A stretch of 7,461 bases of DNA from a virus (taxonomy: Duplodnaviria; Heunggongvirae; Uroviricota; Caudoviricetes): positions 1 through 7,461 of the IMG/VR virus record IMGVR_UViG_2534681766_000009; one strand, written 5' to 3'. Of the stretch, positions 1 to 7,461 are shown piece by piece (within the stretch, counting starts at the first letter, position 1; every line of letters begins with the position of its first letter). The translations under genes were made by a program, and so were the position numbers. Under the pieces are notes generated by a model. The model ran no database searches, was not told where the DNA came from, and saw only the letters and a list, made by a program, of their open reading frames with translations.

Positions 1-1224
1 ATTGAATTAGTTAAATCTTCAGAAAAAAGAATTGAACCAACGACGACTAAATTAGATAAAATTAAATATATTTGGGAAAAAACATTACCTCACCGAGAGC
101 TTGTTTTAGGCGGTTTAACAATTCAAACACGAGCAAAAGGAAATAACGAGGCTGTCTATAACCCCTCGGAAATGAGCGACGGTGAGCGAGTTATTTTCTA
201 TCTGATTGGGCAATGTCTTGCAGCACCCGAAAATGGAATTATTGTCATAGACGAGCCTGAAATTCATCTTCACAAATCTGTACAAGTTCCATTATGGAAG
301 GATATAGAAAAACTCCGACCTGATTGCCTGTTTGTATATATGACTCATGATACTGATTTTGCTGCAGCACTGCATGATGCAAAGAAAATCTGGTTAAAAA
401 GTTATGATGGTTCCAGTTGGGATTGGGAAGATGTTCCCGATGTCGAAGGCCTACCAGAAAGTTTATTAATTGAAATATTGGGTAGTAGAAAACCAATTGT
501 TTTTGTTGAGGGGGAAAATGGAAGCTATGATGTATCCCTTTATCGTGCTGTGTTAAATAGTTATCTAGTGATACCATCTGGTTCTTGTAGTCAAGTAATA
601 CAAAATGTTAAAGCTCTAAGAGCCAGTGAAAAACTCCATTATATGGAAGTTTTTGGTATTATTGATAGGGATAGACGTGTTGAAAATGAAATTCAATCGC
701 TTCTGGAATACGGTATTTATACTCTAAGCGTGGCTGAAGTCGAAAATCTCTTTTGCGTTCCGGAAGTTATAACTTTAGTTAGCGAACGATTAGTCAGGAA
801 TCCAGATAAAGATCTACAATCAGTTAAAGATTTTGTGTTCCGTAAAATATCCTCAGAGCTGGATACTCAGATTTCACTGCGTGTGGCTGGCGAAATTAAA
901 TTCATGCTTAATTGTTTTGATGAAAAAGCAAAAGGGGTCGATGCTCTTAGTAGAGCTCTTGAGTTGTTGACGTCACAAATTAATGTTAAAGAGCTTTATG
1001 ATGAAAGTTTATCTCTGTTTAATAATGCAGTTGAGAAACGTGATTATCTTCTTGCATTAAAACTTTATAACAGGAAAAGCCTTTCATCCCAAGTAAGTAA
1101 GCATCTGGGGCTGGCTAATGGACAGCTTGCTGAATTAGTGGTCAGGATGGCTAATAATGAAAGTGGAGAGTCAATGAGAAATGCTCTCAGACCATATTTT
1201 GGTGAGTTTTCGGGTAAAATATAG
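1..1224 (+). CDS. 5-prime-partial CDS (about 407 codons in window): C-terminal half of an ABC-type ATPase (AAA_21/OLD-like) fused to a Toprim/DUF4435-like nuclease domain; candidate anti-phage protein (OLD-family or PARIS AriA-AriB-fusion-like)
   Basis: Frame 1 is open from nt 1 to the stop at 1222-1224, so the gene starts upstream of the window. ATPase motifs in order: signature-like SEMSDGER (nt 166-189), Walker B IIVIDEPEIHLH (D at 250-252), H-loop-like YMTHDTDF (about nt 340-360). Downstream Toprim-like motifs: IVFVEGENGSYD (E at 508-510) and GIIDRDRR (661-678), i.e. a Glu then DxD about 50 aa later. AT-rich composition contrasts with the phage block. Walker A is not visible (outside window). 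Confidence 0.7.
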   Translation: MELVKSSEKRIEPTTTKLDKIKYIWEKTLPHRELVLGGLTIQTRAKGNNEAVYNPSEMSDGERVIFYLIGQCLAAPENGIIVIDEPEIHLHKSVQVPLWKDIEKLRPDCLFVYMTHDTDFAAALHDAKKIWLKSYDGSSWDWEDVPDVEGLPESLLIEILGSRKPIVFVEGENGSYDVSLYRAVLNSYLVIPSGSCSQVIQNVKALRASEKLHYMEVFGIIDRDRRVENEIQSLLEYGIYTLSVAEVENLFCVPEVITLVSERLVRNPDKDLQSVKDFVFRKISSELDTQISLRVAGEIKFMLNCFDEKAKGVDALSRALELLTSQINVKELYDESLSLFNNAVEKRDYLLALKLYNRKSLSSQVSKHLGLANGQLAELVVRMANNESGESMRNALRPYFGEFSGKI

Positions 1225-1376
1225 TTATACAGAGTGCATAATACTTATCGTGACTGTGGTTGGATGATGTGTGTGGTTCATGTGTCTGCTCCTCGCTCAC
1301 AGCAGGCTGTCAGATTTGATAGCGTTTGGGCTATGTAAATTGTCAGTTGGAAAATGAGTGAGTGCAAGTCAGGACA

Positions 1377-1405
1377 GGCGGGCGAATTGCCCGCCTTTTC
1401 TTTAT
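1377..1405 (+). terminator. Rho-independent terminator (7-bp GC stem GGCGGGC / GCCCGCC, 5-nt loop GAATT, then TTTTCTTTAT)
   Basis: Perfect inverted repeat 1377-1383 / 1389-1395 followed directly by a T-rich run; lies between the cargo gene and the FI promoter region. Confidence 0.6.
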
Positions 1406-1480
1406 CTGTTGTTTCATCCACTGACCAGACAGGTCAAATAGCGTCTCAGGCACTGCCCAATAGAAAATAGTTGCACCCAT
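1406..1480 (+). promoter_or_regulatory. Putative Ogr-dependent late promoter (P_F-like) upstream of the tail sheath gene, containing a TGACC-N5-GGTCA dyad
   Basis: Position directly upstream of FI start (RBS GGAG at 1487-1490). Perfect palindrome TGACCAGACAGGTCA at 1422-1436. An imperfect TGT-N12-CCA at 1410-1427 resembles the TGT-N12-ACA late-promoter element as I remember it. No convincing -35. -10 and TSS not determinable by eye. Confidence 0.3.
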
Positions 1481-1499
1481 TAACCACGGAGTTAAACGG

Positions 1500-1934
1500 A
1501 TGAGTGACTATCATCACGGCGTGCAGGTGCTGGAGATTAACGACGGCACCCGCGTCATTTCCACCGTATCCACTGCCATTGTCGGCATGGTCTGCACGGC
1601 CAGCGATGCGGATGCGGAAATCTTCCCCCTCAATAAACCGGTGCTGATTACCAATGTGCAGAGCGCAATTGCAAAGGCCGGTAAAAAAGGCACGCTGGCG
1701 GCATCGTTGCAGGCCATCGCCGACCAGTCAAAACCGGTCACCGTTGTCGTGCGCGTGGAAGACGGCACCGGCGAAGACGAAGAAACGAAACTCGCGCAGA
1801 CTGTTTCCAATATCATCGGAACCACCGACGAAAACGGTCAGTACACCGGACTGAAAGCCCTGCTGGCGGCGGAGTCGGTACCCTGGACAATCCGGTCAAG
1901 CGTGGTGAGCAGGTCATCGAACAGGTCACGCTGA
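1500..1934 (+). pseudogene. FI: Truncated tail sheath protein gene (P2 FI family): about 127 native N-terminal codons followed by an out-of-frame 17-codon tail
   Basis: N-terminus [40 protein letters not shown]... matches the P2 tail sheath FI N-terminus as I recall it. Sheath proteins of this family are about 396 aa; here the frame runs into E-derived sequence read out of frame ([17 protein letters not shown]) and stops at 1932-1934. Confidence 0.8.
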
Positions 1935-4740: not shown

Positions 4741-5220
4741 ATGATGCTCGCGTTAGGTATGTTTGTTTTTATGCGCCAGACGCTGCCACACCAGACCATG
4801 CAGCGTGAATCAGATTATCGCTGGCCGTCAAATTCCCGTATCGGTAAACGGGATGCCTACCAGTTTCTCGGCGTTGGTGAGGAAAACATGACGCTTGCCG
4901 GTGTGCTTTATCCCGAACTGACCGGCGGCAAGCTGACGATGACCACGCTCAGACTGATGGCAGATGAAGGCCGGGCGTGGCCGTTGCTGGATGGTACCGG
5001 CATGATTTACGGCATGTATGTCATCAGCAAGGTGAGTGAAACAGGGAGTATTTTCTTTGCAGACGGCACACCCCGAAAAATTGATTTTACGCTGTCGCTC
5101 ACCCGCGTTGATGAATCACTGGCCGCGCTTTATGGCGATATCGGTAAACAGGCGGAATCGCTCATTGGTAAGGCTGGCAGTATGGCGACTAAATTCACGG
5201 GTATGACGGGGGCGGGATAA
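4741..5220 (+). CDS. U: Tail protein U (P2 gpU family), 159 aa, apparently intact
   Basis: 159-codon ORF, the length I recall for P2 gpU, N-terminus MMLALGMFVFMRQTLPHQ. Strong SD AAGGAGG at 4725-4731 about 9 nt upstream. Stop TAA 5218-5220 overlaps the D start (TAATG). Confidence 0.88.
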   Translation: MMLALGMFVFMRQTLPHQTMQRESDYRWPSNSRIGKRDAYQFLGVGEENMTLAGVLYPELTGGKLTMTTLRLMADEGRAWPLLDGTGMIYGMYVISKVSETGSIFFADGTPRKIDFTLSLTRVDESLAALYGDIGKQAESLIGKAGSMATKFTGMTGAG

Positions 5221-6381
5221 TGCTGGATGCGCTGACATTTGATGCAGGCAGTACGCTGACGCCGGATTACATGCTGATGCTCGACAGCAGGGATATTACC
5301 GGCAATATCAGCGACCGTCTGATGAGTATGACCCTGACGGATAACCGGGGCTTTGAGGCTGACCAGCTTGATATTGAACTGAACGATGCCGACGGGCAGG
5401 TCGGGCTGCCGGTTCGTGGCGCTGTCCTGACGGTGTATATCGGCTGGAAAGGTTTTGCCCTGGTATGCAAAGGGAAATTTACCGTTGATGAGGTAGAACA
5501 CCGGGGCGCGCCGGATGTGGTCACCATCCGCGCCCGGAGTGCAGATTTTCGCGGGACGCTCAATTCCCGCCGGGAAGGCTCCTGGCATGACACCACGCTC
5601 GGTGCGATTGTTGAGGCGATAGCCTCCCGTAACAGGCTGGAAGCCAGTGTCGCTCCGTCACTGGCCGGAAATAAAATCCCGCACATCGACCAGTCGCAGG
5701 AGTCTGATGCGAAATTCCTGACCCGTCTTGCAGAACGCAACGGCGGTGAGGTGTCGGTAAAAATGGGAAAACTGTTGTTTCTCAAAGCGGGGCAGGGGGT
5801 GACGGCCAGCGGTAAAAAAATCCCGCAGGTCACCATCTCCCGCAGCGACGGCGACCGTCATCATTTTGCGATTGCTGACCGTGGAGCCTATACCGGCGTA
5901 ACGGCAAAGTGGTTACACACCAAAGACCCGAAACCGCAAAAGCAGAAGGTAAAACTGAAACGCAAAAAGAAAGAGAAACACCTGCGCGCACTGGAGCACC
6001 CGAAAGCGAAACCGGTCAGGCAGAAGAAAGCGCCTAAAGTACCGGAAGCGCGCGAAGGTGAATACATGGCCGGTGAGGCTGACAACGTTTTTGCCCTGAC
6101 CACGGTATATGCCACGAAAGCGCAGGCCATGCGCGCCGCTCAGGCGAAGTGGGATAACTGCAACGGGGGTGGCGGAGTTCTCCATCAGCCTGGCTACCGG
6201 TCGGGCAGATATTTACACGGAAACACCGGTCAAAGTGTCAGGCTTTAAGCGCGTCATAGACGAGCAGGACTGGACAATCACTAAGGTGACACATTTTCTG
6301 AATAATAGCGGCTTCACGACGTCCTTGGAGCTTGAGGTCAGGCTTTCTGATGTGGAGTACGAAACAGAAGATGATGAGTGA
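5220..6381 (+). pseudogene. D: Tail protein D (P2 gpD family) interrupted by a +1 frameshift in a G5 run at 6165-6169; would be 386 aa if one G were removed
   Basis: Frame 3 ORF 5220-6248 (MLDALTFDAGSTL...) continues as frame 1 ORF ending at 6381 (GVAEFSISLATGRADIYTE...EDDE). Removing one G from GGGGG joins them as ...KWDNCNGVAEFSIS..., close to the 387 aa I recall for P2 gpD. Could be a genuine pseudogene or a homopolymer sequencing error. Confidence 0.8.
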
Positions 6382-6461: not shown

Positions 6462-6679
6462 ATGTTTCATTGTCCTTTATGCCAGCATGCCGCACATGCG
6501 CGTACAAGCGCTATATCACTGACACGACAAAAGAGCGTTATCACCAGTGCCAGAACGTGAATTGCAGCGCCACGTTCATCACTTATGAGTCGGTACAGAG
6601 ATACATCGTGAAGCCGGGAGAAGTCCACGCCGTAAGACCGCACCCGTTGCCGTCAGGGCAGCAAATTATGTGGATGTAA
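6462..6679 (+). pseudogene. ogr: Late transcription activator Ogr (Cys4 zinc-finger, P2 Ogr/Delta family) disrupted by a 1-nt deletion near 6508-6511; would be 72 aa if restored
   Basis: Frame 3 from ATG 6462 reads MFHCPLCQHAAHARTS then diverges and stops. Frame 2 carries the rest: ...RYITDTTKERYHQCQNVNCSATFITYESVQRYIVKPGEVHAVRPHPLPSGQQIMWM to the stop at 6677-6679. Inserting one C (AGCGCT to AGCCGCT) restores a 72-codon ORF with the C-X2-C-X22-C-X4-C pattern. No single frame currently has all four Cys. Confidence 0.8.
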
Positions 6680-6690
6680 TTACAAACAGG

Positions 6691-6720
6691 AAGCCCCTCA
6701 GTCGAGGGGCTTTCTGTTTT
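6691..6720 (+). terminator. Rho-independent terminator after ogr (9-bp stem AAGCCCCTC / GAGGGGCTT, 4-nt loop, then TCTGTTTT)
   Basis: Perfect inverted repeat 6691-6699 / 6704-6712 followed by a T-rich tract, 12 nt after the ogr stop. Confidence 0.7.
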
Positions 6721-6819
6721 GGGGAATATTCTTCATTAAAAGTAGTGGATCACGTTTAATAAACTATGTTTATCATATACTTAAAAGTAACTTTTTAAAG
6801 TTGGACAGGTTGGTGGAAA

Positions 6820-7461
6820 ATGGAAAAAGTTATAATTGAGCTTGATAATCGTTGGGAGTTAGCTGATTTCGCGGTCTTAACGAAAGAGTATTTGCAGCTA
6901 TATGGTTTTTTTTATGGCCTAAAAGGAGGATCAAGAGGATATTCAACAATGCCTTGGGAGGGTGGGCACAGTGTAGTGAACTTTTTTAGAGGGGCTTACA
7001 GTGCGACTCCACCAGATTTACGTCCTGTAGTGAAAAAAATTCAGTATGCCTCTCCTGGCTTTATTGAATTGTCTGCTCTTATTGATATCTCTTGGCAGAT
7101 TGCTGAGTTAGTTACTGCTGTTGGTGGAAGTATTCTGGCTGCCAACAAAGTTTACGATCAGGTGATGCGTACATATCGACAAAGAGAATGGGCAAAGTTG
7201 AAATCAGAGAAGCTGCGTATACAGAATCAAATTAAAGAGATTGAACTTGTTTCTGACGCAGTTAAATCACTTGAATCTGTGATGGCACTTAGTGAAGAAC
7301 AACGTAAAAACTTGGTTCAACTATCGGGGGCAGATGAACTGGTTCAGTTAAAGATACTTTTGGCTGTTTACCGACGGTTATCTCCTCTTGTTGAGTTGCA
7401 AAACAGCGGGAAAGCTAATTTTTCTGCAGGGAAAAATAAAAATTTAAAAGCGTCCGATTAA
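6820..7461 (+). CDS. Hypothetical protein, 213 aa, AT-rich gene of unrecognised family; C-terminal half looks coiled-coil-like
   Basis: Complete ORF from ATG 6820 to TAA 7459-7461 (the last base of the window). GGTGG RBS-like motif at 6806-6810. Possible -10 TATACT at 6776-6781. Composition and codon usage differ from the phage block. No catalytic motif recognised. Confidence 0.65.
   Translation: MEKVIIELDNRWELADFAVLTKEYLQLYGFFYGLKGGSRGYSTMPWEGGHSVVNFFRGAYSATPPDLRPVVKKIQYASPGFIELSALIDISWQIAELVTAVGGSILAANKVYDQVMRTYRQREWAKLKSEKLRIQNQIKEIELVSDAVKSLESVMALSEEQRKNLVQLSGADELVQLKILLAVYRRLSPLVELQNSGKANFSAGKNKNLKASD

Follow-up and report, generated by a model that had tools for sequence, protein, structure and literature searches.

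What does a lone, AT-rich gene at the very end of a P2-like prophage do, and does it belong to the phage or to the chromosome beside it? The question is raised by the right-hand end of the window, the 7,461-nucleotide stretch of a Caudoviricetes virus (IMG/VR record IMGVR_UViG_2534681766_000009) analysed here. A preliminary description, made from the letters alone, had reported a complete gene of atypical composition just after the ogr terminator, with the window ending exactly at its stop codon, and both points hold. The ORF runs on the plus strand from an ATG at 6820 to a TAA at 7459–7461, the last base of the stop codon being the final base of the window, and its 213-aa product begins with MEKVIIELDNRWELADFAVLTKEYLQLYGFFYGLK. 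GC content is 0.38–0.42 along the gene (~0.40) as compared to 0.52–0.61 in the P2-type tail genes T, U, and D. The features at this end of the window are:

6462..6679, plus strand: ogr (late-gene activator), the final backbone gene ahead of the cargo; Pfam Ogr_Delta, E 8e-12, profile positions 14–47 only
6684..6719, no strand assigned: ogr hairpin terminator, an inverted repeat (16-nt arms in the intact copy) forming a terminator-like site
6714..6819, plus strand: AT-rich leader of the 213-aa gene, with an SD-like GGTGG just 5′ of the ATG
6820..7461, plus strand: 213-aa CDS, a stand-alone homologue of the PD-T4-10B C-terminal domain; RefSeq WP_000416606.1, "hypothetical protein"

To judge from its conservation, the ORF is a real gene and not a chance reading frame, since its homologues are numerous, share its start, and are under strong purifying selection. 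They form 118 clusters at 90% identity, the protein's own cluster holding 165 member sequences, and an exhaustive profile search recovered 795 domain-bearing representatives after clustering at 50% identity. The start position is kept across the aligned homologues. The sole homologue pair with unsaturated dS gave an omega of ~0.10; dS was saturated in the other pairs (dN 0.13–0.33), including the pair with the closest homologue (77% amino acid identity, dN 0.13).

Whether the gene is phage or host DNA is answered by the attachment site. The preliminary description had placed it beyond the prophage end, and the comparison of att boundaries with empty sites that it proposed locates the gene inside the element instead. 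A 47-bp direct repeat, GACACCATCCCTGTCTTCCCCCACATGATGTGGGGGTTTTTTTTATC, occurs just after cpxP and again 82 bp 3′ of the gene's stop codon. Its copies in a complete prophage are:

10522–10568 and 42246–42292 of the strain 504239 locus (L003): the two 47-bp att repeat copies, flanking int...ogr-gene

The complete element in 504239 thus reads cpxP, then int-C-cox ... D-ogrK-gene, then fieF, and strains 504239 and M10 both carry the order tail genes, D, ogrK, 213-aa gene, fieF, pfkA. The cpxP–fieF interval is the documented attachment site of the P2-like prophage Wphi1 in E. coli W (PMC3032704). Site occupancy was assessed in 5426 complete E. coli genomes with a 207-bp query running from the gene's stop codon to fieF. 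Every one of the 5426 matches from query position 83, the first base of the core, and 785 also match the phage arm, mostly from query position 13; by this sequence criterion, those 785 genomes carry a P2/WPhi-like prophage at cpxP–fieF. An identical 782-bp segment (99.9%) with the 213-aa gene is found in 158 of the 5426, that is, in 158 of the 785 same-site prophages, and about 627 same-site prophages therefore go without it. In BW25113 and about 4600 other genomes the site is empty, with cpxP, core, and fieF in succession and nothing between, and the comparison found the gene absent from cpxP–fieF wherever the mobile element is absent. Because the att core lies 82 bp 3′ of the stop codon and empty sites match from the core only, the gene is phage-borne. 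Host DNA or an adjacent island is thereby ruled out, and the gene is not a housekeeping host gene. A partner gene hidden past the window edge, which the preliminary description had left room for, is likewise not there: past the stop codon the attP arm continues for 82 bp, with only the core and then the host gene fieF after it, and no ORF of more than 40 aa besides the 213-aa gene was found between ogr and fieF.

Both ends of the insertion can be placed. Homology to gene-less P2-like prophages stops at ~6713, inside the ogr terminator, where the megablast matches of 2000+ genomes end (query position 314, window 6713), and this marks the left boundary of the cargo. In two gene-less prophages (L014 and L015), alignment of the junction shows the ogr terminator running directly into GATGTGGACGCTATGTGGACAG, then the core and fieF. 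From P2 biology we infer that the pair of TGTGGAC repeats in GATGTGGACGCTATGTGGACAG represents Int arm-type sites; these putative sites directly follow the gene in occupied prophages. The cargo is a clean ~760-bp insertion that begins at window ~6714 and extends 12 nt beyond the stop codon. Taking position together with the identity established below, we are highly confident that this insertion is a moron with a single gene, lodged between the ogr terminator and the putative Int arm-type sites of attP, a slot in which the gene therefore travels with the phage. Within E. coli this slot appears binary, being either empty or filled by the 213-aa gene, and not highly variable. In L026, where phage and host have both diverged, a gene for a 77%-identical protein lies in the same gpU-gpD-Ogr-gene-arm-core-fieF slot, so the tie between gene and slot is old. 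A tblastn search of 50,697 sequenced phage records gave no match to the protein, and a plasmid collection gave two, a 100%-identical Salmonella copy and a Vibrio homologue. The Salmonella copy lies at 72202–72840 of the 80,314-bp Salmonella enterica record NZ_CP092913.1, which was deposited as a non-mobilisable plasmid and may be an episomal or mis-binned P2-like element.

Few expression signals accompany the gene. No strong sigma-70 consensus was found in the leader (6714..6819), where a promoter scan did not exceed shuffle expectation, and alignment of the regions upstream of homologues revealed no conserved promoter or motif. A weak 9-bp inverted repeat (6788–6796 and 6824–6832) brackets the SD and start codon. 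In strain AR202.2 (L013, NZ_CP043946.1, 2605–3974) an IS150 lies between ogrK and the 213-aa gene, cutting off read-through from ogr and leaving the gene intact. The stop codon lies within an inverted repeat of 11 nt, AGCGTCCGATT / AAACGGACGCT (L003 42151–42172), whose left arm is at window 7449–7459 and whose remainder falls just beyond the window; the repeat ends 3 nt short of the right boundary of the cargo, is followed by no T-run, and may be an RNA 3′-end or stability element or a relic of insertion. Scans for an RNA antitoxin gave no Rfam match and no tandem-repeat array of the type III kind.

The prophage in the window is itself damaged. A deletion of ~1.4 kb has removed FII (tail tube) entirely, together with most of FI (tail sheath) and the 5′ end of E, with a junction at ~1879–1880: window 1374–1880 is the 5′ part of FI, and the sequence from 1879 onward lies inside E, about 1417 bp later in an intact prophage. 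The window prophage is therefore tail-defective. D is present as two overlapping ORFs (5220–6248, 342 aa; 6109–6381, 90 aa) as compared to a single 387-aa D in intact prophages, probably reflecting a further frameshift. A 1-nt deletion (a missing T) at ~6508 of ogr gives ACAAG-CGC as compared to ACAAGTCGC in intact copies, and only 32 codons can be read from the ATG at 6462 before a stop; ogr is therefore a pseudogene here, or the record contains a sequencing error. At the other end, window 1–1224 (plus strand) holds the 3′ ~408 codons of a fused PARIS-type AriAB ATPase–DUF4435 gene that runs off the left edge (PADLOC PDLC02982, E 3.7e-139; Pfam DUF4435 and an AAA_21 tail; GC ~0.36). This AriAB-like PARIS fusion sits upstream of FI, at the Z/fun hotspot, and is absent from the similar 504239 prophage. 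Both cargo genes, the fusion and the 213-aa gene, are intact in the defective window prophage.

The protein had been described as unrecognised, which is true of most databases and not of all. Profile searches against Pfam, NCBIfam, PHROGs, and PDB sequences returned nothing significant, and no fold relative was matched. The PADLOC profile PD-T4-10_B (PDLC04024), in contrast to these, matches at E 1.3e-34 over profile positions 139–346 of 353, followed by the B profiles PDLC04025 (7e-23) and PDLC04026 (3e-19); the PADLOC models for this system are PDLC04023–04026, of which PDLC04023 is A. PD-T4-10 consists of two overlapping ORFs from E. coli ECOR65 that form a validated toxin–antitoxin-like abortive infection system (Vassallo et al. 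2022, Nat Microbiol; PMC9519451). PD-T4-10B is toxic and is neutralised by A, B is needed for abortive-infection defence against T4, defence is reported against T-even phages, and neither protein had a predicted function (PMC9519451).

The domain shared with PD-T4-10B occurs in two architectures. In short forms (~205–250 aa) it makes up the whole protein; long forms (~320–400 aa) carry an N-terminal extension of 81–191 aa before it and match the full-length PD-T4-10_B model, with Pfam DUF6575 at the N-terminus. Among the best matches, short forms number 97 and long forms 35 of 132 full-domain representatives. Sixteen positions are conserved alike in the 97 short and 35 long forms (W12, Y28, P45, W46, G48, G49, S51, F55, Y76, S78, P79, G80, Y112, K178, R185, and R186), and the same molecular, effector-type activity is therefore presumed for the short form. 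What differs is the surrounding apparatus. Pfam DUF6575 has no match in the 213-aa protein. An overlapping ORF of ~145 aa matching PD-T4-10_A lies 5′ of the long form in all three long-form loci (L017, L018, L020; PADLOC E 2e-34 and 1e-18, and E 9e-30 for an uncalled copy in L017). Searched with the A profile, the window, the entire prophage of 504239, and ten loci with short forms gave no match (best E 1.9), the search taking in ±5–6 kb around each locus or, in L003, the ~31-kb prophage. Between ogr and the 213-aa gene there are only 140 bp, which include the ogr terminator. Because the match is partial and both DUF6575 and PD-T4-10A are absent, the 213-aa protein is, on homology, the C-terminal module (~200 aa) of PD-T4-10B alone.

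The stand-alone form does not look like an accident of one locus. The clade that holds the 213-aa protein in a neighbour-joining tree has 61 short-form members and one long-form member, the latter with a dubious start, and the short architecture is kept full-length from Enterobacterales to Vibrio and Pseudomonas. By these sequence comparisons the short forms make up a clade that is old and widespread and is subject to purifying selection. A 5′-truncated PD-T4-10B was considered and rejected, given a short length kept across genera, the deep clade, and the presence of only the ogr terminator 5′ of the gene. A classical type II toxin was also set aside, no adjacent co-transcribed antitoxin ORF having been found.

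The predicted structure is well defined and offers few mechanistic clues. The protein contains the conserved motifs LDxRW (8–12), PWxGGxSVVNFF (45–56), and IQYASPGFIEL (74–84), a hydrophobic helix (~85–110), and KILLxxYRR (178–186). An AlphaFold model built on a 46-sequence alignment (pLDDT 86.8) has an N-terminal alpha/beta part (strand 2–8, helices 14–35 and 49–61, hairpin 70–86) and a C-terminal part of helices 88–103, 105–154, 159–169, and 173–195, the last three of which fit the coiled-coil-like C-terminal half noted from the letters; the protein has no solved relative. The helix after the SPG motif is hydrophobic family-wide, with a median of 1.57 for the best 19-aa Kyte–Doolittle window and values of at least 1.6 in 63 of 132 members. 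In the window protein, which is basic (pI 9.1), the value is 1.35, below the usual transmembrane threshold of 1.6, so the membrane idea is weak and a transmembrane toxin was not affirmed. The family has no conserved Asp/Glu/His/Cys catalytic set, its invariant residues being Trp, Tyr, Gly, Ser, Pro, Lys, and Arg; a Ser–Lys dyad hydrolase (S51 or S78 with K178) was considered as a candidate.

Relatives of the gene recur in mobile and defence-associated settings. An Enterobacter homologue sits at the edge of an Ogr-containing remnant adjoining gapA, and a Pectobacterium homologue at the edge of a phage-like region. In Pseudomonas sp. GM80 (L006 6661–7668) a short form fills a prophage moron slot between the early operon and an S24 repressor, with a DUF4917 gene (PADLOC PDC-S21, SIR2-like) 28 bp 3′ of it; the pair may be a two-gene defence islet or a lineage-specific functional pairing. 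On an enterobacterial contig a homologue shares an island with Shedu (SduA_C) and a Schlafen/AlbA_2 protein. One Vibrio locus holds a solitary homologue; in other Vibrio loci a 47%-identical homologue is a one-gene chromosomal-integron cassette between attC-like repeats (~120–136 nt, at least 14 copies in 9.6 kb). Across the ten short-form loci no neighbouring gene recurred. In a Siccibacter locus (L025 3196–4844) and an enterobacterial contig (L027 4197–5848), a homologue lies directly 3′ of the same conserved block of three genes, whose products are 79 aa, ~128 aa, and 421 aa long, the last being a Y-family polymerase (IMS/umuC-like). The domain is also found behind TRADD-like-N (+ EAD1) adaptor domains (P0233 and P0212), and the P0233 gene lies directly 3′ of an EAD1–trypsin-like protease, beside an MmeI-type RM enzyme and a Cas4-like nuclease. 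In the published framework for such adaptor-tagged (EAD1/TRADD-N) proteins, the C-terminal module is the effector.

With no antitoxin gene beside a gene for a toxin domain, the locus is therefore probably one-gene phage-exclusion cargo. The reading we modestly favour is of a prophage-borne, self-contained PD-T4-10B-type effector, encoded by one gene, that serves the lysogen in exclusion or abortive infection. Its parts carry different weight: identity and position are held with high confidence, and the functional part, taken alone, is close to an even call. The earlier expectation of accessory mobile-element cargo of the defence type agrees with the gene's absence from empty cpxP–fieF sites and with a phage-defence toxin being its only recognisable relative. 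The defence-gene neighbours of short forms (PDC-S21/DUF4917; Shedu with Schlafen–AlbA_2) are consistent with it, as is the survival of an intact copy alongside damaged FI/FII, D, and ogr in the window prophage. Counting against it are the promoter scans, which turned up nothing convincing, the lack of any match in the 50,697 phage records, and the fold searches, which gave no relative that would support a mechanism.

We infer anti-phage function, toxicity, trigger, and biochemical mode for the 213-aa protein along the following lines. A P2/WPhi-like temperate phage would integrate at cpxP–fieF and bring the gene with it as a one-gene moron. The short form would keep effector activity and dispense with the regulatory layer of the long form (the DUF6575 domain and PD-T4-10A). 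At lysogenic expression levels the effector would be harmless; low expression or intrinsic auto-inhibition are the obvious ways in which a toxin-like protein might be tolerated with no antitoxin. Upon infection by a competing phage, it would arrest or kill the cell. Its action may perhaps be non-enzymatic and oligomerising, directed at the membrane or a macromolecule, a mode favoured because of the missing catalytic set, the types of invariant residue, and the hydrophobic helix followed by one of ~50 residues. If the DUF6575 domain were the toxic half of PD-T4-10B, the short form would not be the effector. We also entertain, tentatively, a possibility that turns the relationship around, in which the short form is a minimal one-protein abortive-infection system of new fold that both senses infection and executes arrest, and PD-T4-10 is the derived system, having added DUF6575 and the antitoxin.

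Other readings fare less well. That the gene is cargo for something other than defence, such as an envelope-acting lysogenic-conversion factor or a helper of phage lysis or integration, is unlikely. Its place abutting the putative Int arm-type sites, next to attP, would suit such a helper, and the basic character and hydrophobic helix of the protein also speak for such cargo. The sole detectable homology, however, is to a defence toxin, homologues also occur far from any att site, and the 627 of 785 same-site prophages that do without the gene show that it is not needed for integration.

It is also improbable that the 213-aa protein is half of a split system whose partner, be it a PD-T4-10A-like antitoxin, a DUF6575 protein, or another regulator, comes from another part of the genome or from the host. 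The related long form does need A for tolerance (PMC9519451), and the antitoxin search was bounded by the ranges given above. Against this, the domain travels between genera in single-gene units, an integron cassette in one case and a moron in the other, which makes reliance on a specific unlinked partner unlikely, and the ten loci share no recurring neighbour.

We regard as quite doubtful an anti-defence decoy, a truncated homologue that would enter assemblies of PD-T4-10B-type proteins, or sequester the signal that activates them, and so, as a dominant negative, aid phage establishment in PD-T4-10-positive hosts. In favour of a decoy, the gene is phage-borne, its protein retains the conserved core as well as long helices through which oligomers could form, and 158 genomes evidently tolerate it with neither the N-terminal domain nor the antitoxin. 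A decoy is nonetheless hard to reconcile with short forms exceeding long ones (97 to 35 among the best-matching representatives), with their presence in non-phage settings (integron cassettes, islands beside Shedu, solitary chromosomal loci), with a deep, diversified clade that looks autonomous and unlike repeated decoy capture, or with PD-T4-10 defence being reported against T-even and not P2-like phages. Finally, a decaying remnant or selfish orphan toxin fragment, now functionless, might be suspected in a decaying prophage from a protein equal to only part of a characterised toxin, but it is very improbable and largely refuted by the selection and distribution data, namely the intact ORF with its 165-member cluster, the low omega, the deep short-form clade, and the full-length conservation across orders.

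The protein stands close to several known systems and apart from each. As in PD-T4-10, it comes from E. coli and a mobile-element context, and the whole protein is homologous to the C-terminal ~200 aa of PD-T4-10B, with the same invariant residues; unlike PD-T4-10B (~340–370 aa), it has no N-terminal DUF6575-type domain (~120–160 aa), and there is no overlapping upstream PD-T4-10A gene, so PADLOC-type rules requiring A and B would not call it. Like old, tin, and fun(Z) of P2, it is AT-rich, non-essential cargo, variably present in syntenic P2-like prophages and plausibly protective of the lysogen, although it belongs to an unrelated family. Its position between the ogr terminator and the attP arm is a third one, distinct from the P2 hotspots described next to cos (Rousset 2022) and at Z/fun (Vassallo 2022); the latter study covers the cos-adjacent and Z/fun hotspots only (PMC9519451), and the former makes no mention of ogr or att. 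The C-terminal, effector-position domain and defence-island setting are shared with EAD1/TRADD-N-tagged effectors of NTPase-centred conflict systems (Pfam PF19955, PF20694), whereas the 213-aa protein is free-standing, with no adaptor domain and no associated NTPase. The one-ORF cassette of the 47%-identical homologue, with its attC-like repeats, recalls the single-gene defence cassettes of Vibrio chromosomal integrons, although here the vehicle is a temperate phage. Since the family is tied to a known defence system, the protein is not categorically new. In the literature searched, neither the stand-alone, antitoxin-less form, its dominance in the family, nor the att-adjacent P2-like slot is described; PD-T4-10 itself is named in only three papers there, and WP_000416606 is not mentioned.

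The gene considered here is unannotated, is present in some 3% of complete E. coli genomes on a prophage type that is common, and points to an attP-adjacent cargo site of P2-like phages that falls outside both hotspot surveys. Of the best-matching full-length representatives, about three quarters consist of the domain alone, and the form that has been studied is the minority long form with an antitoxin. If the solo domain defends alone, it would provide the PD-T4-10 effector module in isolated form for studies of mechanism, and system-calling rules that require A plus B would be missing most of the family. Were the gene instead to block PD-T4-10, it would be a case of a phage borrowing a defence domain as counter-defence. 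If the one-protein-system reading is true, P2-like phages would have a third, att-adjacent defence slot, and the reuse of the domain behind EAD1/TRADD-N adaptors and in integron cassettes would be explained.
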